This document shows, piece after piece, positions 6,226 to 64,000 of a DNA stretch of 64,000 nt. This DNA is from a virus. The notes beneath the pieces were generated by a model. The model had not been told where the DNA came from. It worked only from the letters and a program-made list of their open reading frames with translations, and made no database searches. A program made the translations under genes and the position numbers. The stretch's first letter is position 1, and each line of letters opens with the position of its first letter. The stretch lies in the IMG/VR virus record IMGVR_UViG_3300045988_174992. One strand, written 5' to 3'.

Positions 6226-7803
6226 ATGGCAAAGAAATGTCTAGTATATGAGACACTTGGCAACATAACTGCAATGAAGGTTAAGGAGTCTCTTGACAAT
6301 AATGAAATTCGCCTTTCTGGTGTATTCGGTGTTTGTGGTATTAAGAATGGCAATAATCGAATCTACAGTAAAGAGAATTACGGCCGGATGGTAGAAAGTT
6401 TGCAAAAGACAATAGCAACAGAAGGTTGTCTTGGTGAACTTGAACATCCAAATTCAATGAATATTAATCTAAATAATGTTTCACACAAAATTGAAAGTGT
6501 TCAAATGCATGAAGATGGTACCATAACAGGTACTGTTGTATTGCTTGATACCGAGAAGGGTCGTAATGCTAAGGCTATTGTAGAAGCTGGTGTACCTTTG
6601 TATATCAGTTCTCGTGCACTTGGTTCTATCGATGAATCTGGTAATGTAACACTTACCATGCTTAAGACTTATGACTTAGTTGGTACACCTGGTTTCTCAC
6701 AAGCAAGTTTACACCTAGATGAAAATCAGAAGTTTGAATCATTAAATGAATCTATGTGTGCAGTAATTCTTGAAGGTGAAGATGACAACGATGATGATTC
6801 AAATAAAGACAAAGATAAAGACAAAGATAAAACAAATATGAAAGACTTGAAAGAAGCAGTTGATAAGCTTAGTGAAAAGGTAGAAAGCCTCGAGGCTGAA
6901 CTCCATGTAGCTAAGGAATCTATCAATGAAAAGGATGAGCAAATCCAAGCTCTTACTGAACAAGTTTCTGAATTCAAGCCTACTAACTATGATGCTATTG
7001 AATCTTGGATTAAGGAAGAATTCAAGCCTGAATTCAGCCAAGAAATGGCAAATGGTGTACAGAAATGGGTAAGTGAAGAGTTTGCTCCAGTTGTTCAGAA
7101 TTGGGTATGTGAACAGTTTGCTCCTGAAGTACAGAAGTGGGTAGTAGAGCAGTATTCACCAGAAGTTCAGAAATGGATAGTGGAGAATTATTCACCAGAA
7201 GTTCAGAAGTGGGTAGTAGAGCAGTATTCACCTGAAGTACAAAAGTGGATTGTTGAAAATTACTCTGATGAATTACAGAAGTGGATTGTAGAGCAGTACT
7301 CTCCTGAAGTTCAGAATTGGATTGTTGAAAATTACTCTGATGAATTACAGAATTGGATTACCGAGCAATTCGGTAAGGAATTGACTAACAAGATTAATGA
7401 GAATGTTTCTGAATATCTCGAATCTAAGTCTAATGACAAGTTCGAGAATATTGATAGAATGCTTGAGATGCTTGAAAGTGGTCAAGGTTCTAAGGAAAAT
7501 GAGATTCAGATGTTGAAGGAACAGCAAGAGAAGAATCTTGGTAAGTATGCAAATTGCTATGCTATTGTAAACATGCCAAATGAGTATCGCCCAATGTTTG
7601 AAGGTTTGAGTGAGCAAAAGAAGGATGAGATAGCTCTACAGTCTCGTGCTTATGACTTTACTAAGACTGGTGTAATGGAAAGCTTCTGGGCTGGTATTGA
7701 CTTCAATGAGAAGCCTGTACAGAATATCAATGAAAACCATAATCAAAATCCAGTAGATAACTATATGGCTAGTATCGCTGCTCAGATGATGGCTTTACGT
7801 TAA
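6226..7803 (+). CDS. prohead protease fused to scaffold-like repeat domain (T4 gp21/gp22-like)
   Basis: N-terminal ~170 aa resemble gp21-type prohead protease (GELEHP, ISSRALGS regions). An acidic KDKDKD linker, a coiled coil and 9 x 12-aa repeats follow. Directly upstream of the capsid gene. Confidence 0.7.
   Translation: MAKKCLVYETLGNITAMKVKESLDNNEIRLSGVFGVCGIKNGNNRIYSKENYGRMVESLQKTIATEGCLGELEHPNSMNINLNNVSHKIESVQMHEDGTITGTVVLLDTEKGRNAKAIVEAGVPLYISSRALGSIDESGNVTLTMLKTYDLVGTPGFSQASLHLDENQKFESLNESMCAVILEGEDDNDDDSNKDKDKDKDKTNMKDLKEAVDKLSEKVESLEAELHVAKESINEKDEQIQALTEQVSEFKPTNYDAIESWIKEEFKPEFSQEMANGVQKWVSEEFAPVVQNWVCEQFAPEVQKWVVEQYSPEVQKWIVENYSPEVQKWVVEQYSPEVQKWIVENYSDELQKWIVEQYSPEVQNWIVENYSDELQNWITEQFGKELTNKINENVSEYLESKSNDKFENIDRMLEMLESGQGSKENEIQMLKEQQEKNLGKYANCYAIVNMPNEYRPMFEGLSEQKKDEIALQSRAYDFTKTGVMESFWAGIDFNEKPVQNINENHNQNPVDNYMASIAAQMMALR
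7057..7380 (+). repeat. nine in-frame 36-nt tandem repeats inside the protease/scaffold gene
   Basis: Encodes VQKW(I/V)VE(Q/N)YSPE-type 12-mers x 9. Confidence 0.9.
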
Positions 7804-14753: not shown

Positions 14754-16604
14754 TTATTTTAACTTATCATAATTTTTTCTAACAATATTAGAAAATTTAA
14801 TCAATGCTTCTTTCATTCCTGATTTTGTATCAGATACACCTACCCAATTATCTCCATATAACTGATAATTGATTGATTTATATTCTTTTTCATTATTTTT
14901 GTACTGATAATCTGTTGAATTGATGCAAAGCAATCCAAATAATACATTTTGGGCTTTCCAATCATTGATAACTCTGATTAATGATGTTTTACTACTCAAA
15001 TACAAACTATCTGTAATATTCAAAAAGAATATTTTCTTATTTGTTTGTAGTTTAACATCTTTCAATATAGTATCATAAGACTTTGCATCATTTTGACTCA
15101 TTTGATGTAATCTATTTCCTAACTTATAAGGATTCTTATCTTTAGGTGTAATATATTTTACAATATTTTCACCATGTCCATAGATATATAAATCAATTCC
15201 ATCATAATTCTTCATTGCTTCATAAAAAATACAAGCAAGTTTTGATGCAACATTTCTAGCAGAATATTCACAGTTTTGAGGAAAACTCATTGATGCGGAT
15301 TCATCTATTGATATTACAAATGTATATTTAGGATCTGGGCTTTCTGATTTCTTCATAACCTTTCTATGATATACACAGTTTACTCCTTGGATTGCTTGTA
15401 CAAGATGTGAAGATATAAGTTGTCCGTTTCTATGGAATTTATCATCTTCTAATTCAATTTTCTTATTGTTAGGAATGATTATTTTCTTAGCAATATTTAT
15501 TTCTTCTGTTAGTTTAGAAACCATTTTCTTGTAAGCAACTACATCAGAACTATTTGGTTTTACAGCACCTATCTCTTTTGTTGCTCCTTTAAACAATTCA
15601 TCTAGCTTATTATCTGGTTTACCAAGAGTATCATTTTCTTGATTTACTGATTCTTTTGCCTTGTTGAATTTTTGTGATATCACATTATTTGATTTATTTC
15701 TTCCTTCACTTGTATTAGGAGAAAACAATCCATTTTGACCACAATTCTTGTCTTGGTTTGGATTACCTTCAGTTGATGAATTTCCTATCATACCAAGATT
15801 TGGCTTAGATAATTTTGAATTGAGATCATCTAACTTTACATATTTCTTGATTATTTCCATGGTATCAAGACATGCAACAACAGTATTTTTTGTAGGACTA
15901 TATTTGAATTGGCTTGGATCTTCAATCTTTACAATAACATTTTCATATATCTCATCTAGCATTGGACCAAATTCATCAATCCATTCTTTAGGAAATCTAT
16001 TTGAAAGATTTGAATTTCTAACCATATACAATACCATGAATTGCACAATATCTATCTTACTGTTAGAAAGAACAAGCTTCTTTACAGAATTGATGAATTT
16101 ATCTTCAGAAAAGTAATGTGACAACACATGGTTCAAGAAATACATCCATTGTGGTTTTCTGACACCTAACATTTCTTCAATACATTCATCTTCATATAAA
16201 TTATGAAGCCAATGAGCAATAGGATATTTTACCATTTTCAAATCATAGTTTTTGAAATCAGTAAAAGCACAATGGCATGCTTCATGACAAGCTAATCCCA
16301 TTTCAATATCCATACCATCATAAGCATCTTTATGCTCCTTCATTGGATTCATTCCAACAACAATATGTTTACCATCTGTATATGATGAATCAGAATTTTC
16401 TTTAGCAACTAACTGTGCGGAATTTTCTGTTACTTGATTGGAAACATAAAGTAAAGCTTGTGACATCAATGCTGCTGATGTCTTATAAGCTTCAATTTCC
16501 ATCTCTTTATATATGAACTTTGAAGATGGATTTATGCCAAACCTGTTAATAGTATAAGTTGGTCGGTTAGAAAACCATTTTGTATGTTTGAGAGTATATG
16601 TCAT
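14754..16604 (-). CDS. metallopeptidase-like + von Willebrand A domain protein (CobT/DUF2201-like)
   Basis: HExxH (HEACH) in the N-terminal half; MIDAS DxSxS (IDESASMS) in the C-terminal half; 616 aa. Confidence 0.6.
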   Translation of the reverse strand: MTYTLKHTKWFSNRPTYTINRFGINPSSKFIYKEMEIEAYKTSAALMSQALLYVSNQVTENSAQLVAKENSDSSYTDGKHIVVGMNPMKEHKDAYDGMDIEMGLACHEACHCAFTDFKNYDLKMVKYPIAHWLHNLYEDECIEEMLGVRKPQWMYFLNHVLSHYFSEDKFINSVKKLVLSNSKIDIVQFMVLYMVRNSNLSNRFPKEWIDEFGPMLDEIYENVIVKIEDPSQFKYSPTKNTVVACLDTMEIIKKYVKLDDLNSKLSKPNLGMIGNSSTEGNPNQDKNCGQNGLFSPNTSEGRNKSNNVISQKFNKAKESVNQENDTLGKPDNKLDELFKGATKEIGAVKPNSSDVVAYKKMVSKLTEEINIAKKIIIPNNKKIELEDDKFHRNGQLISSHLVQAIQGVNCVYHRKVMKKSESPDPKYTFVISIDESASMSFPQNCEYSARNVASKLACIFYEAMKNYDGIDLYIYGHGENIVKYITPKDKNPYKLGNRLHQMSQNDAKSYDTILKDVKLQTNKKIFFLNITDSLYLSSKTSLIRVINDWKAQNVLFGLLCINSTDYQYKNNEKEYKSINYQLYGDNWVGVSDTKSGMKEALIKFSNIVRKNYDKLK

Positions 16605-23117: not shown

Positions 23118-24671
23118 TTATGATTTACTATTCTCTTCCTCTTCTCTTATCTTTATAAGTCTATCAATTTCCATCATTACTGGTCCTTGTAATGACCAAT
23201 TCAAATATTTGTAATGGTCTCGACGTTCCTTTTGAATTCTTTGCATTTTCGCGAACATGTATTCTTTATCATTTTTGTATACAGTTCCTTGCAATGATAC
23301 AAAATAATTAGGGTCTTTTCTGAACTTATCAAGCTCTTCTTCTGTCCATGGAATTTCTGTATATCTTCCAAAACTGTCTGGACCTACTTTATTTGTAACA
23401 ATAGATTCCATTGATATGTTGCAAGTTCGAACTACTGATGGATAAAGTGAAGCAAAATCATCACATACACTATATTCCCAACGTCCTGGAACACATCCAC
23501 AAAAAGCACCTTCATAATTTACTTTTGTTCTTTCAACAGCATCATAATCCCATACTACATGTCGATCTTCATCATAAAAACATCTGAACAAATTAGCTGT
23601 TGTCAAAGCCACCTGACCCAATGCTTTCTGAGCTGGAATTCCTGTTACTGTTGCCATAGAACAAGGACTTTCAATACATTTGAAACGATAATGAATCAAA
23701 GCATTCAAGCAAGAGTCGATAGCATTATAGTAAACAAACAATGGGAAATCCTTTTCATAACATTCCTTCATTGTTCCTTCATATTTTACTTTATGAGCAT
23801 TAACTCCATGACTACCAACCCAATCTAACGAATATGATTCATAAGGTCTCATTGAATACTCATAAGATTTGATGAGCTCCATATAATCCCATATCATGCA
23901 ACCTTGTGGTGCTGGAATACTATATTTTGTACCATCCATCTCTGACCAAGAAATCTTATTGATTTCTCCAACAACACTTGCGGATCTCATCAATTGCATT
24001 GCTTTGAACTTTCCAAACAACTTTACTGTTCTATTCCAAATATAGTTCCAATCAAATCGATAATAGTTCCATCCAGCAAGACATCCGATCTTTGGCATTA
24101 TTCTAGTAAACCAATGCTCAATCATTGATTCCTCAGTTTCAAAATATTGATAATATACTTTTGGTGTAAAACCTTTTTTCTTTAATAGGTTTTTCGCAAA
24201 GTCATTATCTTCTATATATTTAAGGTATCTTTCCTTCAATTCTTCTTGTTCATCAGAATTCAATGGTTTGATACCTAATACCATTACAGACAAATCTGGA
24301 CCAACAAGACTTATCAACTGAATTCTTTGTTCTGCCTTTTCTGGTTCTGGGAATTCATCAGAAATTTCGGTTTCTATATCACTAAAGTAAATTCTTGGAA
24401 ATCTCATCGCCATTACTTCCTTATAGATATCTTCTGGCAAATTGTACAAGAATTCCAACTGGTCAAACTCATTTGGTTGATATTTAGATGCATCCTTAGA
24501 TACTACATCACATTTCTTACCATCCCATGTATACTTCTTTCCATTTGGATTGTACTCATAAGTCTTCCAGTGATGCATCTGTTTTGAATAGCATTTTCTA
24601 TTACCATTTTCATCCAAATAGAAAATATAATACGTCTGATTCTTTCTTAACCAAAATCTGTCAATTATCAT
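23118..24671 (-). CDS. family B DNA polymerase, N-terminal part (exonuclease domain through motif A)
   Basis: Exo I FSDIETE, Exo II NYYRFDWNY, Exo III YYNAIDS, pol motif A DFASLYPS; ends before motif B; own terminator 23082-23110. Confidence 0.9.
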   Translation of the reverse strand: MIIDRFWLRKNQTYYIFYLDENGNRKCYSKQMHHWKTYEYNPNGKKYTWDGKKCDVVSKDASKYQPNEFDQLEFLYNLPEDIYKEVMAMRFPRIYFSDIETEISDEFPEPEKAEQRIQLISLVGPDLSVMVLGIKPLNSDEQEELKERYLKYIEDNDFAKNLLKKKGFTPKVYYQYFETEESMIEHWFTRIMPKIGCLAGWNYYRFDWNYIWNRTVKLFGKFKAMQLMRSASVVGEINKISWSEMDGTKYSIPAPQGCMIWDYMELIKSYEYSMRPYESYSLDWVGSHGVNAHKVKYEGTMKECYEKDFPLFVYYNAIDSCLNALIHYRFKCIESPCSMATVTGIPAQKALGQVALTTANLFRCFYDEDRHVVWDYDAVERTKVNYEGAFCGCVPGRWEYSVCDDFASLYPSVVRTCNISMESIVTNKVGPDSFGRYTEIPWTEEELDKFRKDPNYFVSLQGTVYKNDKEYMFAKMQRIQKERRDHYKYLNWSLQGPVMMEIDRLIKIREEEENSKS

Positions 24672-35511: not shown

Positions 35512-35515
35512 AAAA

Positions 35516-35541
35516 TTGGCTCGATCTTAAGATCGAGCCAA
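35516..35541. terminator. bidirectional terminator between convergent genes
   Basis: TTGGCTCGATC-TTAA-GATCGAGCCAA flanked by A- and T-runs. Confidence 0.75.
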
Positions 35542-35548
35542 TATTGTT

Positions 35549-36361
35549 TTAAGTAGTATAATAATTAACATTATATATACAATTATTATATGTAGATGTA
35601 ATAGTTTTATTTTTTGTGCCTGGGCCATCTATACTACAACCGTCTGGAATACTATAATTTCCGTAATTTGTTGTATATTTAAAATTAGGGGTTTCGTATC
35701 CATTCCATGTTAAACTGGTTAGTTCAAAATCAATTATAACAGAAGAATTATTGTCAATATATACTTTAATATGTGTATTTATAACATCTTGTCTTAATAA
35801 ATCATATACAGGAATTGGCATTTGGGCGTCATGGCTTTCTATCTGTCCACATACAGAAATATCATGACCATCTCCTGTTACCCAAATTCCACAATTAATA
35901 TTATAAGTACCAGTATTATCTACATAAGTATATTTATAATATGCAGGATTTAATCCTAATTTAGGATAATATGATGCTATAATTAAAGCATAGGAAATGT
36001 TACTTATTTGTGATTCATCTATTTTTTCCCAAGTATAACAAGAATCAGTATCTCCCTTTAAGTAATAATTTTCATAATTATTTCCATTTGATTCACTTGT
36101 TAAATGATGACTAATATATGAAGAATAAGGAGTAGACAATATTATACCACCAGGATCAGAAATATAAGTTGAATCTTGAATAAAGAAAGATGTCAATATT
36201 AATCCTGTTACATTTTTTGAATTTACATCTGAAACACTAATTGAATTATCAATATGTGGTGTTGTAAGAAATCTTCTAACATATATACTATTATTAGTAC
36301 CAGTATCGCTTTCATATTTCTTCATACTACCACTCTGAGTGTAGCATATTCCTGTAGCCAT
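35549..36361 (-). CDS. hypothetical N/Y/S/T-rich protein (270 aa)
   Basis: ORF bounded by the inverted-repeat element upstream and bidirectional terminator 35516-35541 downstream. Confidence 0.55.
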   Translation of the reverse strand: MATGICYTQSGSMKKYESDTGTNNSIYVRRFLTTPHIDNSISVSDVNSKNVTGLILTSFFIQDSTYISDPGGIILSTPYSSYISHHLTSESNGNNYENYYLKGDTDSCYTWEKIDESQISNISYALIIASYYPKLGLNPAYYKYTYVDNTGTYNINCGIWVTGDGHDISVCGQIESHDAQMPIPVYDLLRQDVINTHIKVYIDNNSSVIIDFELTSLTWNGYETPNFKYTTNYGNYSIPDGCSIDGPGTKNKTITSTYNNCIYNVNYYTT

Positions 36362-36434
36362 AAATTCTCTTTCAAATATATTTTATAGAATATAAGTGAC
36401 TAAGAGAAATTATGAATATATCAAAAACTAACAC

Positions 36435-36695
36435 CCAATACCATCTCCACTTGAGATGAATTGGTAAGTGTTAAGTTGTTCATGACTAATTCATTATTTC
36501 TTTTTTAAAGAAAGCGTCAGAGTGATATAATGAAATAGCTACAAATCAATTATCGTGTACTCTGACGCTTTTAAGTCACCACTATGATATATTTTGTAAA
36601 CATCATTAATTTCTTACTGAATATTATTAATTACATATAAATTTTTATATCTAATTATTTTACTACCAATTCATCTCAAGTGGAGATGGTATTGG
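36435..36695. repeat. perfect 32-bp inverted repeat flanking a 197-nt spacer that contains an 11-bp hairpin
   Basis: CCAATACCATCTCCACTTGAGATGAATTGGTA at 36435-36466 and its exact reverse complement at 36664-36695; inner stem AGCGTCAGAGT (36513-36523) / ACTCTGACGCT (36559-36569). Confidence 0.9.
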
Positions 36696-36788
36696 TGACT
36701 TAAATTTGAAGAAACATGATGTTCATTTCTAATATCTTATATATAAAAATAAGATAATTTATAAGTAGAATTTCAAGCCTGACAGTCA

Positions 36789-37991
36789 TTATTTAATTCT
36801 ATATTTAGCACCTATGATAGCATTAGCTGCAGCAAATGAACCAGTCATCTTCATCATTCTATCTTTCCAAGTGAATACAATACCTTCTGTAGAATTCAAC
36901 TTGTTTCCAAGTTTTTGAAGTCTTAACAATTGATCCTTAAGCTTATCTTTGTCTTCTTGAGTACCTTTCTCATCAACAAGCTTCTTAGTGGCTTCTATCT
37001 CATTCTTCAAATTGATTATTGCTTTGTCTTTGACTCCATCATTAATCAAACCAGATGTAAGTTCAATTACTTTATTTGACATATCTAAGAACAGGTCATC
37101 AATTGGTTCGATAACATCTTTAACATATTTCTTATAATCTTTCTTATCTATAGAAACAATTTCATCAGCATGTTCAGGGTAGCTCTTCTTCAATATTCTT
37201 ATATTTACACTCTTATCTGAATTGAACCATCGGTTGAAGAATGCATCCTTTTCAGTCATCCATTCTGGTGCTATAATTTCAAAACGTTTCTTTTTCCAAT
37301 CTTCTATAGTAGCATCTTTTCCTAAACCTTCAGATTTGAATAAGTCAATAACTTTCTTTTTATATTCATTAGCAAACTTATTGCTGTCTTTAGTAACTTG
37401 AATAATTATATTAGGTGTAAGCTTGGCTTTGTCATCCTTTTCTATAGCCTTTTGAATAATACCAAGTCCATCTTTGGTAACACTATCCTTTTTCCATTCA
37501 TCACCTTCTTTCTTATATACCCAAATATTATGGAAGTCAACCTGATCATCATCATAATACATGATATTAGTAGTACCTGATACTATACATTCACAGTTTA
37601 CTAACAATCTTGTATTAGGATCAGGATTGAAGAATTTGCTACCAATTCTTTTGAATATCTTTTCAAGTGTATTACCAGCAGATACAAATGCTTTTTGAAC
37701 GGTTGGTTTGTCTTTCCATTTTTCAATCATATCTTGGATAGTCATACCTCCACGTTCTGAATTCAAGTCACCTTTGTTTCTTATAAAAACTACTTCATCC
37801 TGATTATTCATAGATGCTTGTATGTTAGTACCATCTAATTTCTCTGTAGCATTAGATATCTTACCTCCAAACAAATCATCTATCAAATCAAGTAAATCTT
37901 GGCAGGTGAAGTCAGTTTCATCAATTACATGCATCATGTGACCACTAGCTCCACCTTCAAAGATTTGTACATATTGAGTTAAATTAATCAT
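36789..37991 (-). CDS. ligase-like nucleotidyltransferase (KxDG) with CTS-like leader
   Basis: N-terminus MINLTQYVQIFEGG; motif I-like EKLDGTN; C-terminal EGIVF / KMTG (motif IV/V-like) at unusual spacing. Confidence 0.5.
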   Translation of the reverse strand: MINLTQYVQIFEGGASGHMMHVIDETDFTCQDLLDLIDDLFGGKISNATEKLDGTNIQASMNNQDEVVFIRNKGDLNSERGGMTIQDMIEKWKDKPTVQKAFVSAGNTLEKIFKRIGSKFFNPDPNTRLLVNCECIVSGTTNIMYYDDDQVDFHNIWVYKKEGDEWKKDSVTKDGLGIIQKAIEKDDKAKLTPNIIIQVTKDSNKFANEYKKKVIDLFKSEGLGKDATIEDWKKKRFEIIAPEWMTEKDAFFNRWFNSDKSVNIRILKKSYPEHADEIVSIDKKDYKKYVKDVIEPIDDLFLDMSNKVIELTSGLINDGVKDKAIINLKNEIEATKKLVDEKGTQEDKDKLKDQLLRLQKLGNKLNSTEGIVFTWKDRMMKMTGSFAAANAIIGAKYRIK

Positions 37992-42032: not shown

Positions 42033-42554
42033 TTAATCATGTGGTTCGTATGTATTAGTATGCTTGTAATGTTCATACTCCATACTGAACAAGTACCATC
42101 TCTTATATTTTGTCAACCAACTGATTGGGCATACTTTATGAATATCTTCATTACCAAAGAAGATACCATTTTCAGCACAATAGTATTCACGTTTCTTACC
42201 TGTTCTAGGATCAACCAATACAATGAACTTCTCACCAGTATTTTCATCTACATAATACTTTTCTACTTCATCTTCATTTGTGTATACTAGAACTTTCTCA
42301 TAATATTCTGTATCATATAGAACGAATGCAGCTAATCTTGGCAATGTTTCTTTCTTTGTCTTAGCATAACCAAGCTCATGAAAACTTACCATTGTTGCAG
42401 TATTTCCATGTTCCTTAGTCTTAGCTTCTTCAAAAGCTTCAACATCTTCTTGAGTCATCATAGATTCTGTCTCATAGATGGCTGTATACTCAAGATAAGG
42501 AATTGTTGATGTAGCAGATATGTCTACACGATAGTTTACTAAATACTTTCTCAT
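42033..42554 (-). CDS. hypothetical protein (173 aa)
   Basis: ORF; promoter 42585-42614. Confidence 0.55.
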   Translation of the reverse strand: MRKYLVNYRVDISATSTIPYLEYTAIYETESMMTQEDVEAFEEAKTKEHGNTATMVSFHELGYAKTKKETLPRLAAFVLYDTEYYEKVLVYTNEDEVEKYYVDENTGEKFIVLVDPRTGKKREYYCAENGIFFGNEDIHKVCPISWLTKYKRWYLFSMEYEHYKHTNTYEPHD

Positions 42555-42620: not shown

Positions 42621-42650
42621 AAAAAAGGATGATCTTAAGATCATCCTTTC
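42621..42650 (-). terminator. rho-independent terminator
   Basis: GGATGATC-TTAA-GATCATCC with U6 in minus sense. Confidence 0.75.
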
Positions 42651-49402: not shown

Positions 49403-49756
49403 TTAATATACTTCTTCACAATCCAAATCTTCAAGATATGCATTATCTGTATCATAGTTGAAGAACTCATTTACACCGTCATCGTAAACATCAATGATAC
49501 GTTCTACATCATCAAAGTCAAATATAGGAGTACCTTCAACACCAAAGATTGATACTTCTTTGTTACCAAGAATCTTATATTCACCATTCTCATCTTTCTT
49601 TGAAAATGCAAGATTAATAGTAAGAGTATCATCATCCATAGTGAAAACAGTTGAAGTATCATCAAACTTGCAATTGAAAAGATAAGTATCTCCATTCAAA
49701 AGATTTACAACTGCTTTATCGAAAGAAATTTTATTTGTATTCATAATCATAATCAT
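49403..49756 (-). CDS. hypothetical acidic protein (117 aa), MIM-start family
   Basis: Starts ATGATTATGATTATG after promoter 49775-49803; paralogue of 54220-54576. Confidence 0.55.
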   Translation of the reverse strand: MIMIMNTNKISFDKAVVNLLNGDTYLFNCKFDDTSTVFTMDDDTLTINLAFSKKDENGEYKILGNKEVSIFGVEGTPIFDFDDVERIIDVYDDGVNEFFNYDTDNAYLEDLDCEEVY

Positions 49757-58968: not shown

Positions 58969-58997
58969 AAAAAGAGATGCTTGTTTTAAGCATCTCC
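58969..58997 (-). terminator. terminator enclosing the PolB C-part stop codon
   Basis: GAGATGCTT-loop-AAGCATCTC, U5 in minus sense; the TAA stop lies in the loop. Confidence 0.6.
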
Positions 58998-60278
58998 AAA
59001 TAAGTCAAATTGTACTGTACCATTGCTATTCAACAATGGGAATTTCATTACTTCAAGAAATCTGTTCAATGGATCAAGAACATTCTTTTGCCATTGAACC
59101 GCTTTATCACATGGTGGTGCCCAAGATGGAAGCTCACCAGATGGATATCCAAAGTAATCTGTTTCAGCCTTCTTTGTACTTCCTAATCTTATATTGTAAT
59201 ACTTTACTTTCTGTCCTTGTACAATACGAAGATTTCTCTGATTGTTCTTCTTTGCCAAATAGTTATATCTTGCTGCACATTTTACTGATACTGGAGTCTG
59301 TTTTGCAAACATCAAATCTTCTTCATCACACAATACATATTTCTTGTAATTACCAACATTAATTGACTGTGAAATATCTTCAATAGGAGCAGCCCAGAAT
59401 TTCTTCTTCCATTTATCCAATTTACTGTTGAAATAGAGAATATATTCTTCTTTTGACATTTTACCAGTATCATAAACCAATGACCTTGTCATATCAGTAA
59501 TGATTTCCTTTGCAAGCTTAGGAGAAGTTGTCTTAATAAGTTCAATTCCAACACCAGTAATCTTTGAAGGTGTAAACCATTTGCCTTTTGAATAAGACAT
59601 GGCCTTCAAATATTTCTTTTTCTTCAATGTAATTGTTGCTTCAGAAACAGTTTCCAATTCAAACTCATGAATTGAATGACAATGACGTGGATTGTACATA
59701 TCATTCATCCATTCTGTATTCTGCTTATCAAGAAACTCCTTATTGAATTTCAATATCCATTTGATCTTGTCATCTCGTTCTGGAATACTTGCTAAAGTTT
59801 CTGGTGTCCAACATCTGAAGAAATCACCATATTGGGTATACACAGAATCTGTATCTGAGTATTCACTAATATGCTGTTGCCTAAACCAATCATGCTTTGA
59901 CTCATCAAGTTCAAATCCAAATTTTTCCCACAAATCCTTTCTTTGCCAAATATCTTCATGGAAAAACTCTTCAAGTCTATTCCACATGAATTTTGTCAAA
60001 TTTCTTGCCTCGCAGGTAATATCGGAAGCGCACCTCATGTCGTAGAAATAGAAGAATCTGTTTGCACATGCACCGTACGCCGAGTTATTTAAAAGCTTAC
60101 TGCATAATTCCAACATTGAATTCTCTTCAATAAGATGTTCCAAGTCCTCTTTATATGCTTTAAGCTCTTCCAATGAAAGTGAATATATGTCCCTTCCATC
60201 AAGCTTATCTTTCATAAATTGCTGACACTGCTCAGAGAAAACTTTTTTTTCTCCATATTTCTCTACATTATATTCCAT
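58986..60278 (-). CDS. family B DNA polymerase, C-terminal part (motifs B and C, thumb)
   Basis: Motif B KLLNNSAYGACAN, motif C YSDTDSVY, KKKKYL; starts 2 nt after the stop of the upstream endonuclease-like gene; own terminator. Confidence 0.9.
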   Translation of the reverse strand: MEYNVEKYGEKKVFSEQCQQFMKDKLDGRDIYSLSLEELKAYKEDLEHLIEENSMLELCSKLLNNSAYGACANRFFYFYDMRCASDITCEARNLTKFMWNRLEEFFHEDIWQRKDLWEKFGFELDESKHDWFRQQHISEYSDTDSVYTQYGDFFRCWTPETLASIPERDDKIKWILKFNKEFLDKQNTEWMNDMYNPRHCHSIHEFELETVSEATITLKKKKYLKAMSYSKGKWFTPSKITGVGIELIKTTSPKLAKEIITDMTRSLVYDTGKMSKEEYILYFNSKLDKWKKKFWAAPIEDISQSINVGNYKKYVLCDEEDLMFAKQTPVSVKCAARYNYLAKKNNQRNLRIVQGQKVKYYNIRLGSTKKAETDYFGYPSGELPSWAPPCDKAVQWQKNVLDPLNRFLEVMKFPLLNSNGTVQFDLFGDA

Positions 60279-60280
60279 TA

Positions 60281-61348
60281 TTAAATTCTATTTATATATT
60301 CTTTTACTTGATTAATAGTAAAAAATTCAAGATAATTCAAATTATTTCTTTTTGCACATTCTCTTTTCTCAACATCTTTAATAGTCCATGTTGTTATAAT
60401 TTGTGGTAATTTCTTCCAATGTTTATATTTCCTTTTAAGCCTTTCTAATATTACTTGATCTTTAACTGAATTTTTATCATAGGGATTACTACCATGTGTG
60501 TAAAATCCTTGATATTCTATAAACAAATCTTTTGATGGTATGTAAAAGTCACATTTATATGGGTACCTGATCTTATCATAATATTGCCTTATTATATCAG
60601 GATATATTTCTTTCAATAAATTATAACATTCATTTTCTGATTTAGAATTTCTTTTATCCAAAGTACCATTCTTCCTCATTGTAAGATATCCCTTTTTTTG
60701 TACTTCTTTAGATATAGAACTTGCAAACTTTTTGTATTCTTCTGTTTTAGCATAATTATCTACACCATAATGTTTCAAAAAAGTTTGTTTTTTCTTTTCT
60801 GTTATCTTGTTTCTATCTTCTTTAGAAATATATGACCATCTTTCTTTTTGAATATCCGATAAATATGTTTCTCCATATTTATTTTTTATCAATTCAGGAA
60901 TTTTCTTTCTAAACTCTTTGTTACCTAATATAGAATTTGAACCATATTTCTTTTTACAAGTTTCTTTTCTCTTATCTATAAACTCTTTTACACTTAATGT
61001 AGATTTGACCCCATATTTATCTATAATGGATTGCCTCATGTTTTGCAATTTTTCTGGGTCATGTTGTTGACAATAAGATGAACAATATTTTTTCAGACCA
61101 TCTCTATTCCCATAAGACTTTATTTCATTTATGAAAGGAATTCTCTTTCCACAAAGTTTGCAAGTTAATGGTTTATCCAAACCATGCTTTATCAAATAAA
61201 ATGCCTCATATATATTATCTACATTTTCAAATCTAGTTTTAAGATATTCTATTTCTTCTGGAAGTACTTTGCCATATTTTGCTTTTCTATATAGCATGTT
61301 AGTATTCTTCCAGTATTTTGATATCAATACTTCATCTGTTACCTCCAT
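60281..61348 (-). CDS. putative homing endonuclease-like protein (zinc finger, KYG repeats, PD-(D/E)xK-like C-terminus)
   Basis: CKLCGK...YCSSYCQQH; four (K)KYG(V/S/E) repeat modules; C-terminal CDFYIPSKDLFIEYQG resembles a D...ExQ/K nuclease core; abuts the split polymerase gene. Confidence 0.45.
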   Translation of the reverse strand: MEVTDEVLISKYWKNTNMLYRKAKYGKVLPEEIEYLKTRFENVDNIYEAFYLIKHGLDKPLTCKLCGKRIPFINEIKSYGNRDGLKKYCSSYCQQHDPEKLQNMRQSIIDKYGVKSTLSVKEFIDKRKETCKKKYGSNSILGNKEFRKKIPELIKNKYGETYLSDIQKERWSYISKEDRNKITEKKKQTFLKHYGVDNYAKTEEYKKFASSISKEVQKKGYLTMRKNGTLDKRNSKSENECYNLLKEIYPDIIRQYYDKIRYPYKCDFYIPSKDLFIEYQGFYTHGSNPYDKNSVKDQVILERLKRKYKHWKKLPQIITTWTIKDVEKRECAKRNNLNYLEFFTINQVKEYINRI

Positions 61349-61417: not shown

Positions 61418-61792
61418 TTAGATGCAGTCCTTCAAGAAGTCAAGCTCATCATCTGTCAAACCTGTTACCTTAGCATTAGGGAACAATGTGTTGTGGATCT
61501 TGACTGCAATCTTGATCTTTCGAGCTAGAACAGCCATAGACTGAGCTGTGGTATTCACCTTATTGAGAATCTTGACTGGATCAATTGCTTTCAAATTAGT
61601 AGCAACATCTGTGGTATTTGTGATACCCAAGTCAAGTGAATTCTCGAGATCATTCTGCATATTACGATAGTCCTGTACCATCTTAGCTACATCCATCTCA
61701 GACTGTGTCTGAATTGATCGTGTTGCGTTCTTTACACGAATATCCTTTACTTGCTTTGCACTTCCACCAATAATTGACTCAAAACTCTGCAT
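61418..61792 (-). CDS. hypothetical protein (124 aa)
   Basis: ORF; promoter 61855-61883; N-terminus MQSFESIIGG is weakly CTS-like. Confidence 0.55.
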   Translation of the reverse strand: MQSFESIIGGSAKQVKDIRVKNATRSIQTQSEMDVAKMVQDYRNMQNDLENSLDLGITNTTDVATNLKAIDPVKILNKVNTTAQSMAVLARKIKIAVKIHNTLFPNAKVTGLTDDELDFLKDCI

Positions 61793-62843: not shown

Positions 62844-64000
62844 ATGAAACTTAAGCTAACACAACAAATTATCATAGGGCAGAAGCATAAGAATTATGCT
62901 TCACTTGATATACTGTGTTGGCTTTCTAAGAATCTTTATAACCAAGCTTTGTATCAGATAAGACAGCAATATAGTAAAGACAAGACTTATCTTGGTTATT
63001 CTAAGCTATATAGACTATTATATGATACAAAGCAACCAGATTATTTTGCTTTACCATATACTCAATGTAGCCAGCAAATACTACGTTTAGTTGATAAAAC
63101 ATATACTTCATTCTTTAAAGGAATAAAGTCAGCTAAGAATAAAGGAAAGAAAGTCAGACTTCCTAAGTATAAAGATAAAGAAAATGGAAGGTATGTATTT
63201 GTATATACCAGTCAATGTATCAAGGTAAAGGATGGCATTCTAAGACTTAAAGTGAACAAGACTGATTTCATTTACTTTAATTGTGACAAGGAAGATGTAT
63301 GCCAAGTAAGAATAGTACCTAAAGGAAATCATATAGTAGTAGAAATAATATATCAAGTAGAATATGAACTGAAGAAAGATAATGGAAATTATGCTAGCAT
63401 AGATCTTGGAATTGACAATATAGTTACTTTAGCTTCTAACTCAGCTCAATCCGTTCTTTATAATGGAAGACCATTGAAAGCAATAAATCACTTTTACAAC
63501 AAGAGAAAAGCTGAGTTGCAATCTAAGGTAAAGACTAAGTCAACTAAGAGAATAAAGCGTTTGAATGGTAAGAGAAACAGAAAGGTAAAAGACTTCATGC
63601 ATAAGCTAAGTCATGCCATAGTATGTTACATGGAATCAAACAACATAAATACATTGATTGTAGGAAAGAATGTTGGTTGGAAAGACAGTATCAAGCTAGG
63701 GCATGTTGTAAATCAAAACTTTGTTTCAATACCATACAATATGCTAATACAGATGCTAGAGTATAAGTGTAAGCTAAAAGGTATCACATTCATTGTGGTA
63801 AATGAAGCATATACTTCAAAGTGTAGTTTCATGGACAATGAAAATATTTGCAAGCACAAAGTATATGCTGGATCTAGAATAAGAAGAGGATTGTTTGTAA
63901 CAAAGAATGGACTTAGACTAAATGCAGATATAAATGGAGCTTTGAATATAATGGTACTAGGTTGTACTAAGATAAATGTAAAACGTGATGCTCTAGTAAT
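62844..64000 (+). CDS. tnpB: TnpB-type (IS200/IS605 OrfB) RNA-guided endonuclease, 3' end outside window
   Basis: Own translation; open frame from ATG 62844 to the window edge (absent from the track because it is unterminated). RuvC triad contexts IDLGIDN, VNEAYTSKCS, NADINGALNI. No tnpA nearby. Confidence 0.85.
   Translation, partial: MKLKLTQQIIIGQKHKNYASLDILCWLSKNLYNQALYQIRQQYSKDKTYLGYSKLYRLLYDTKQPDYFALPYTQCSQQILRLVDKTYTSFFKGIKSAKNKGKKVRLPKYKDKENGRYVFVYTSQCIKVKDGILRLKVNKTDFIYFNCDKEDVCQVRIVPKGNHIVVEIIYQVEYELKKDNGNYASIDLGIDNIVTLASNSAQSVLYNGRPLKAINHFYNKRKAELQSKVKTKSTKRIKRLNGKRNRKVKDFMHKLSHAIVCYMESNNINTLIVGKNVGWKDSIKLGHVVNQNFVSIPYNMLIQMLEYKCKLKGITFIVVNEAYTSKCSFMDNENICKHKVYAGSRIRRGLFVTKNGLRLNADINGALNIMVLGCTKINVKRDALV

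Follow-up and report, generated by a model that had tools for sequence, protein, structure and literature searches.

Gut bacteria typically show phase variation that is brought about by DNA inversion and is often directed against phages. The invertible promoter switches of bacteria include fimS of Escherichia coli (FimB/FimE), the capsule promoters of Bacteroides fragilis (Mpi), and the cwpV and flgB switches of Clostridioides difficile (RecV), and the Mpi and RecV recombinases act in trans. The sap locus of Campylobacter fetus, reportedly described by Dworkin and Blaser in 1996-97, is said to have one invertible promoter between opposed sapA homologues with conserved 5′ ends, and its inversions are said to be nested and largely RecA-dependent; a title with the words 'Nested DNA inversion' is among the references of PMC1950947. 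To our knowledge, DNA-inversion phase variation in phages is known mainly from the tail-fibre segments of the temperate phages Mu and P1. In these phages, the Gin and Cin serine invertases act on the G segment of Mu and the C segment of P1, respectively, and thereby switch tail fibres. The gut context of the bacterial promoter switches has been described (PMC10939037), and the tail-fibre inversion of Mu and P1 has been summarised in two works (bioRxiv 10.64898/2026.02.14.705889 and PMC13501310). One of them, the TPMM paper (PMC13501310, August 2026), presented putative invertons on gut viral MAGs (16 contigs), for example at a Microviridae capsid gene. The other (bioRxiv 10.64898/2026.02.14.705889) reported 30-kb invertible 'isomer' regions in Anabaena cyanophages, whose orientation is not phylogenetically fixed, and a recombinase-independent mechanism was discussed. 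In giant T4-like gut phages, reversible gene switching of such a kind is hardly documented.

The locus described here lies in a window of 64,000 nucleotides (the whole stretch of DNA that was analysed, IMG/VR record IMGVR_UViG_3300045988_174992), which belongs to a T4-like jumbo phage from human gut metagenomes with a GC content of ~30%. Its genes include those for a Gp23 capsid protein, a T4 baseplate protein, a prohead protease, a gp46/47-like nuclease, topoisomerase II, ThyX, RtcB, and a sigma-like factor, and the contigs of the clade measure 148-294 kb (individual loci are denoted below by L numbers). Annotated GenBank phages contained no DNA relative, and by protein they gave just ligase-like matches of 25-27% identity. 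The 84 kb of this phage that were searched contained no integrase and no other recombinase of the lysogeny type. The element at 36435-36695 is probably an active invertible DNA switch (inverton).

With regard to other features of this genome, an extended phage promoter consensus, TTTGAAAT-N12-TTCTATATT-N6-GT(T)AAA, occurs at no fewer than 14 intergenic sites in the window, such as those upstream of 12-698, 1253-1780, 14754-16604, 42033-42554, 49403-49756, and 61418-61792. Upstream of genes, the T4 late motif TATAAATA is over-represented, with 8 sense occurrences versus 1.6 expected. Shine-Dalgarno motifs precede 6 of 83 genes, which is the background level, and appear not to be used, which may hint at the type of host. 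A family-B DNA polymerase is apparently split into an exonuclease-domain ORF (23118-24671, minus strand) and a polymerase-domain ORF (58986-60278, minus strand) ~34 kb apart, and directly upstream of the latter lies a 355-aa DUF7487 ORF (60281-61348, minus strand), possibly a mobile endonuclease. A TnpB/IS605 OrfB gene (62844-64000, plus strand; PF01385, 5.7e-25; PF07282, 3.5e-15) with a Cas12f-like TNB domain runs off the end of the window, and L031 seems to hold a different gene at this place. In L013 (4048-4829), the ThyX gene adjoining the module is split into pieces of 49, 146, and 35 aa, by frameshifts or assembly errors.

The element consists of two arms, both putative crossover sites: a gene-proximal arm at 36435-36466 (CCAATACCATCTCCACTTGAGATGAATTGGTA, 32 nt) and a ligase-proximal arm at 36664-36695, its exact reverse complement. 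Between them lies the 197-nt invertible segment (36467-36663), whose orientation in the window is referred to as the 'W' state. A sequence-only reading of this DNA had described a perfect 32-bp inverted repeat around a 197-nt spacer, and this description held. The arms are 100% complementary over 32 nt and form the only long inverted repeat of their kind in a scan of the 64-kb window, which contains no further copy of the 32-mer with up to 3 mismatches allowed, and none of 100 dinucleotide shuffles gave a comparable match. The extension of the match beyond 32 nt, proposed in the same reading, is marginal and amounts to a few pairs with a bulge. The inner stem of 11-13 bp with a loop of ~35 nt was recovered as a 13-bp stem (36511-36523 / 36559-36571) with a 35-nt loop in the folds of both strands. 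The whole element folds at -97 and -93 kcal/mol on either strand (z ~ -11), and the arm by itself is dyad-symmetric (MFE -10.2/-12.7 kcal/mol; equalled by 4 of 5000 shuffles). No Rfam family or tRNA matched the element.

The 427-nt non-coding gap (36362-36788) that had been noted between a ligase-like gene and a 270-aa ORF is likewise present, and is mostly taken up by the element. Both neighbours are on the minus strand, namely, a 400-aa ligase-like ORF (36789-37991) with a weak PF09414 (RNA_ligase) match and the 270-aa ORF (35549-36361). A 5′-UTR ('U', 36362-36434, minus strand) of 73 nt extends from the gene-proximal arm to the ATG, and a leader ('L', 36696-36788, minus strand), a diverged inverted copy of the 5′-UTR region, adjoins the ligase-proximal arm. 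As had been stated earlier, no terminator lies between the element and the ligase gene. The only one is a bidirectional palindrome at 35515-35542, downstream of the 270-aa ORF at the end of the module, and it is kept in relatives with and without the module (L002 and L003 compared). The palindromes at 35515-35542 and 42624-42649 share a terminator-like core, GATCTTAAGATC, and the former brackets a variable slot that holds the switch module, a gene of 163-181 aa, or both. A mini-ORF of 8 codons, ATGAACATCATGTTTCTTCAAATTTAA, situated just beyond the ligase-side arm (36705-36729, minus strand), is kept in relatives and contains the near-palindrome GAACATcATGTTt.

On the evidence of the assemblies, 36435-36695 is a real invertible DNA segment, an inverton that flips by recombination within its arms. 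The same phage was recovered as ENA MEGAHIT contig k127_125124 (ERZ919512; L004/L007; 276,731 bp, sample ERR414236), which is identical to the window over 39361-36664 and in both arms, shows just 2 SNPs along the 3,918 nt compared on the other flank, and has a 197-nt spacer that is the exact reverse complement of that in the window. Here and in related loci, the inversion breakpoints fall inside the arms. The loci were gathered from homologue clusters of the 270-aa protein, plus an IMG/VR pattern search, and all of them have 32-nt arms, a spacer of 183-206 nt, a 5′-UTR of ~62-76 nt, and a cassette gene. When assemblies were searched for both orientations of 36467-36663, both were found: relative to the 5′-UTR side, 15 of 27 distinct loci are in the window state and 12 are inverted in the consensus assemblies, a count that takes in the window and treats L004/L007, L002/L042, and L001/L139 as one locus each. 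Both states occur in at least three lineages, in many gut samples, and in both assembly pipelines (k127/k141 and 'scaffold').

In the lineage that encodes one identical 207-aa protein (P0026), L013 and L021 are inverted and L014 and L016 are in the window state, with 0 differences in 2,167 + 1,122 flanking nt (3,289 nt compared) and likewise 0 in the re-oriented spacers. Since these four loci with identical flanks split 2:2, flipping is recurrent and faster than point mutation, and an orientation that outpaces point mutation does not represent one single old rearrangement. The assembly k is far above 32, so the orientation is not an arbitrary choice of the assembler. A short segment between inverted repeats was accordingly found in both orientations in otherwise identical genomes, and the earlier suggestion of an invertible switch is strongly supported. 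Fragmented or short-k assemblies stop at the arms, as in L005 (Logan, k=31), whose first position is 36464, and in the NCBI contig L008, whose last is 36664. Contigs of the cassette family are mostly just 0.8-2 kb long (L005, L006, L024-L028), though the phage genomes measure ~250-290 kb, and assemblies break on both sides of the cassette gene, either at the switch or where strains with different cassettes co-exist.

In several respects, this locus is like the bacterial promoter switches: ~200 bp are enclosed by perfect inverted repeats immediately upstream of a variable gene, populations contain both orientations, and the cargo is of the promoter or terminator type (putative here). As in the Mpi and RecV switches, the recombinase may act in trans. 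Unlike them, it is carried by a T4-like jumbo phage genome with no recombinase found in 84 kb, its arms drift between close lineages, and relatives have a second, nested inversion.

The centre of the spacer (AAAGCGTCAGAGTGATATAATGAAATAGCTACAAATCAATTATCGTGTACTCTGACGCTTTT, ~60 nt) is almost invariant in all lineages, as judged from the oriented spacers of 14 loci, and persists in lineages whose arms have diverged at 10-12 of the 32 positions. This core (36511-36571) is composed of the 13-bp stem and the 35-nt loop with a -10-like box, and U/T-runs lie on both sides. No sequence in 35300-37000 matches the sigma-70 type better than a promoter-like site of the segment, TTTAAA-N16-(TG)a-TATAAT (36504-36531, plus strand; 10/12, TG extension present), which in the window is directed away from the 270-aa gene. 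It is kept in all lineages with the exception of L001, which has a 1-nt deletion in the -10-like box. From this match, we infer an outward-firing promoter of the sigma-70-like type in the core. In the window, TGnTATAAT is present 12 times, the chance of one falling in the segment is ~0.04, and no other use of it was seen upstream of the genes of this phage in the 64-kb window. The phage's own promoter consensus (TTTGAAAT-N12-TTCTATATT, at least 14 copies) is unlike the TGnTATAAT site of the segment. A Bacteroidetes-type promoter (TAnnTTTG) found no convincing match in the spacer, and a T4 late-promoter-like TATAAATT in the spacer is not conserved across lineages.

The promoter-like box faces the 270-aa gene in L004 and faces away from it in the window, and by this direction the window state is putatively called OFF and the L004 state ON, an assignment that follows from the consensus match. 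In the OFF state, the putative promoter would face the end of the ligase gene; in the ON state, it would face the 73-nt 5′-UTR and the hypervariable 270-aa cassette gene. A transcript started at the box would be without the 5′ half of the stem, read-through transcripts would fold the hairpin, and the hairpin with its flanking T-runs could halt read-through from either side. Leader L contains a degenerate promoter of the phage consensus (TTGAAAT at 36776-36770 and a -10-like box at ~36757-36748, minus strand), with which a weak minus-strand promoter-like motif noted earlier at about 36749-36777 coincides. Because this promoter reads into the segment, the switch could alternatively act through cwpV-type termination that depends on orientation. 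Two layouts speak for a promoter inside the segment. In L025, the switch is flanked on either side by a complete cassette gene, and these divergent genes both have the same 5′-UTR and no leader besides it; in L029, a single cassette is intact, and the box is directed at it. Loci of the L012 type have a terminator between the ligase operon and the module.

The 270-aa gene (35549-36361, minus strand), putatively regulated by the switch, belongs to a cassette family with a conserved N-terminus (MATGICYTQSGS.KKYE), a variable or swapped middle, and a conserved C-terminal beta domain of ~120 aa. Its protein has 69 homologue clusters with identities of 87-37%, and the C-terminal domain was modelled with a pLDDT of 88.5 and a pTM of 0.81 (AlphaFold). 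The 270-aa protein had no Pfam, PHROG, or PDB profile match, the cassette models had no significant structural neighbour in Foldseek searches against PDB and BFVD, and no relatives of the cassette protein were found in annotated GenBank phages. A tail-fibre or Ig-like label was dropped because no significant sequence or structure match was obtained. Judging from the layout of the locus, inversion probably switches this hypervariable gene on and off.

In some relatives, the module is larger. L029, L001, and L002 have a second perfect inverted repeat of 32-33 nt. It falls in conserved codons for the N-terminus (YTQSG..KKYE) of two divergent cassettes, and the stretch that it encloses comprises the first 6 codons, the 5′-UTR, leader L, and the inner switch; of the cassettes, one is complete, and the second is without a start. 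The window has a single copy of this coding motif (YTQSGSMKKYE, 36311-36343, minus strand), which corresponds to the outer repeat of the relatives. The silent cassette of L029 has a counterpart of the same type in L032 (90.7% identical) that is joined to the head, and the two loci become equal only after in silico flips of the outer and inner segments; no single strain showed both states. Inversion of this outer 'head' (promoter, 5′-UTR, and first 6 codons) could also change the cassette body that is expressed. In L025, the switch has a copy of the 5′-UTR on either side, the two copies being inverted relative to each other, and leader L of the window is a diverged mirror copy of the 5′-UTR, so the single-gene ON/OFF switch of the window looks like a reduced two-cassette toggle, and we infer that its module is a reduced form of the two-cassette module. 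In L003, whose ligase is 97% identical, the ligase stop runs straight into the terminator palindrome, and the whole 1.24-kb module, element plus gene, is missing. The switch module as a whole is accessory.

A sap-type layout, i.e., a promoter segment between opposed cassettes with conserved 5′ ends, was found in L025, L029, L001, and L002, whereas in the window there is a single cassette, and the mirror copy of the 5′-UTR is degenerate. As in C. fetus sap, a putative promoter-bearing head in these relatives lies between divergent cassettes that share only the 5′ coding end, the swap repeat falls in conserved codons, the inversions are nested, and there is no dedicated recombinase nearby. The differences are that the repeats measure 32-33 nt, as opposed to several hundred bp in sap, that the window has one cassette, that there is an extra inner flip of 197 nt, and that the carrier is a virus.

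Between lineages, 16 of the 32 arm positions vary (14 loci), and the changes are mirrored in the partner arm (436 matched versus 12 unmatched cells). Five arm haplotypes were distinguished, i.e., the WIN type, C7T+A22G, C16T, the L002 type (8 changes), and the L001 type (10-12 changes), and both arms of a genome nearly always carry the same one. The perfect arm match is 32 nt in every lineage. Unmatched arms occur in a few loci (L010, L015, L018, L025, and L063), which are possibly hybrids or locked switches. Compared with the 4-fold sites of the neighbouring gene, arm divergence is 0.25 versus 0.15 and 0.31 versus 0.52, and the 5′-UTR and spacer are better conserved than the arms (divergence ~0.07); between WIN and L002, for instance, the 5′-UTR differs by 7% and the arms by 25%. 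Since the arms drift approximately like 4-fold sites yet stay matched, what is maintained is the identity between the arms, not the arm sequence. That perfect arm identity implies selection, or homogenisation, had also been proposed earlier, and the co-variation of the arms across lineages bears this out. Internal dyad symmetry is kept in every arm haplotype (shuffle p 0.0007 to 0.018). No enrichment was detected for a protein-binding motif, CACTCTGAG, common to the inner arms, the outer repeat, and the core. Within the L002 lineage, TATCACTCT recurs over 9-10 nt (shuffle p = 0.005) in the inner arm (6823-6854 of L002), the conserved core of the spacer (6982-6999), and the outer repeat (6691-6722), which may reflect sequence exchange among the three. 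A 9-mer shared by arm, core, and outer repeat is significant in this lineage only, and not in that of the window.

With regard to the flipping enzyme, a Pfam scan of the 83 ORFs of the window yielded no recombinase family among the matches listed (for one batch, the best 25 of 35 families, the remainder having E values above ~2e-4), in agreement with the earlier remark that none is visible in the window. PF00589, PF00239, and PF07508 had no matches in the window plus 10 kb past each end (84 kb), and no tyrosine or serine recombinase was found beside the module in any related locus. The TnpB at the window end is not an invertase. As the search covered 84 kb of the phage, an enzyme acting in trans would be compatible with these results. 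A site-specific recombinase encoded elsewhere in the 276-kb genome or supplied by the host is slightly favoured, at a little under an even chance. Three features suggest it: the dyad symmetry is conserved, the extent is fixed at 32 nt, and the centre is not palindromic. Short-homology recombination by the general machinery of the phage or host is a serious, if somewhat more tentative, candidate. Homology-driven inversion is suggested by the near-neutral drift of the matched arms, the outer repeat of the same length and unrelated sequence, the recombination genes of the phage, and the reportedly RecA-dependent precedent of C. fetus.

The ends of the arms (TATCA...TGATA) presumably resemble hix/gix sites, the 26-bp (12-2-12) crossover sites of the Gin, Hin, and Cin systems, which also have an enhancer bound by Fis. 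The locus is like the G segment of Mu and the C segment of P1 in that DNA inversion in a phage genome would alternate variable proteins (as proposed here) and in that the repeats are dyad-symmetric and ~30 nt long. In Mu and P1, the variable 3′ parts of genes lie inside an invertible segment of 3-4 kb with the invertase gene adjacent, whereas here the putative promoter and 5′ end are inside a segment of 0.2-0.46 kb and the variable bodies are outside. An invertase gene adjoining or inside the segment, as for Gin, Hin, and Cin, was found neither in the window nor in related loci. As in the viral MAG (PMC13501310) and cyanophage (bioRxiv 10.64898/2026.02.14.705889) reports, inversions in phage genomes were detected from sequence data. 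Those reports concern candidate calls or very large segments, in contrast to the small promoter-type switch coupled to a jumbo-phage cassette family that is described here.

Several other explanations of the element were weighed against an active switch. It is unlikely that the locus represents a passive inversion polymorphism, in which the repeats are mere substrates of T4-like recombination and the orientation is without regulatory effect. Such a polymorphism would fit the failure to find a recombinase in 84 kb, the approximately neutral rate at which the arm sequence drifts, the presence of gp46/47-like recombination nuclease genes in the window, and the fact that the putative promoter is a consensus match with a chance of ~0.04. 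However, the core stays near-invariant while the arms and 4-fold sites diverge, and the arms are matched, dyad-symmetric, and 32 nt long in five lineages, whereas a useless pair would decay. In addition, the element is always located directly upstream of a cassette gene or between two, with a conserved 5′-UTR. The folding of both strands (-93 to -97 kcal/mol, z ~ -11), the mirrored arm changes, which are also expected from selection on RNA pairing, and the U-runs that flank the inner hairpin could instead suggest a long-hairpin RNA element (an RNase III site, terminator, or insulator) to which DNA inversion is incidental. This appears improbable, given that both DNA orientations are common, that the element has no Rfam match, and that L012-type loci have a terminator upstream, from which it follows that the main input does not come from operon read-through. 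Inversion leaves the stem unchanged, so pairing in the RNA does not by itself account for the conservation of a sequence-invariant, orientation-specific 35-nt loop, and a 32-bp stem in a read-through transcript follows from the repeats of any inverton and hence does not explain the DNA inversion.

There is very little likelihood that the two states are an artefact in which the assembler picked the orientation arbitrarily and a single orientation is real. The breaks of short-k assemblies at the arms (L005 at 36464, L008 at 36664) would be in keeping with it, but spanning contigs come from k=127 or k=141 MEGAHIT and scaffold assemblies, whose final k-mers are far longer than 32 nt, so the arm-spacer junctions are read-supported, and both pipelines yield both states in many independent samples. 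A MITE inserted in the intergenic gap, which the sequence-only reading had also considered, would fit the terminal inverted repeats and small size but was rejected as having next to no chance of being correct. The element is a single copy in the window, and further copies of the arm core are absent outside the locus in IMG/VR, JGI metagenomes, and 185,579 GTDB genomes. There is no target-site duplication, the 'empty' relative L003 is without the whole module, gene included, and the position relative to the cassette gene is always the same.

The active switch remains the preferred reading, and its likely benefit would be bet-hedging, in that the progeny would be a mixture, some making the variable protein and others not, or making different ones. 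A broader and more tentative proposal, held with well under even confidence, is that of a nested system in which a 197-nt promoter flip inside a 0.46-kb head flip would both toggle and swap cassettes without a dedicated recombinase, with the repeat length of 32-33 nt, rather than the sequence, under selection. For a T4-like jumbo phage of which 84 kb showed no sign of lysogeny, this might constitute a phage counterpart of bacterial antigenic and phase variation, serving as bet-hedging against host defences or receptors.

What appears to be new is a small promoter-type switch that is conserved, and actively flips, across a widespread clade of gut phages with genomes of 250-290 kb, together with its putative control of a fast-evolving cassette family and the nested cassette-swapping inversion in relatives. 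The locus also serves as a warning that phage genome assemblies break or differ at such inversion sites. At 260 bp, the system is compact and tractable for asking whether short perfect repeats and general recombination are enough for programmed switching, and it also gives access to the role of the hypervariable proteins. If the interpretation is true, such phages would also create heritable, reversible heterogeneity in their progeny.
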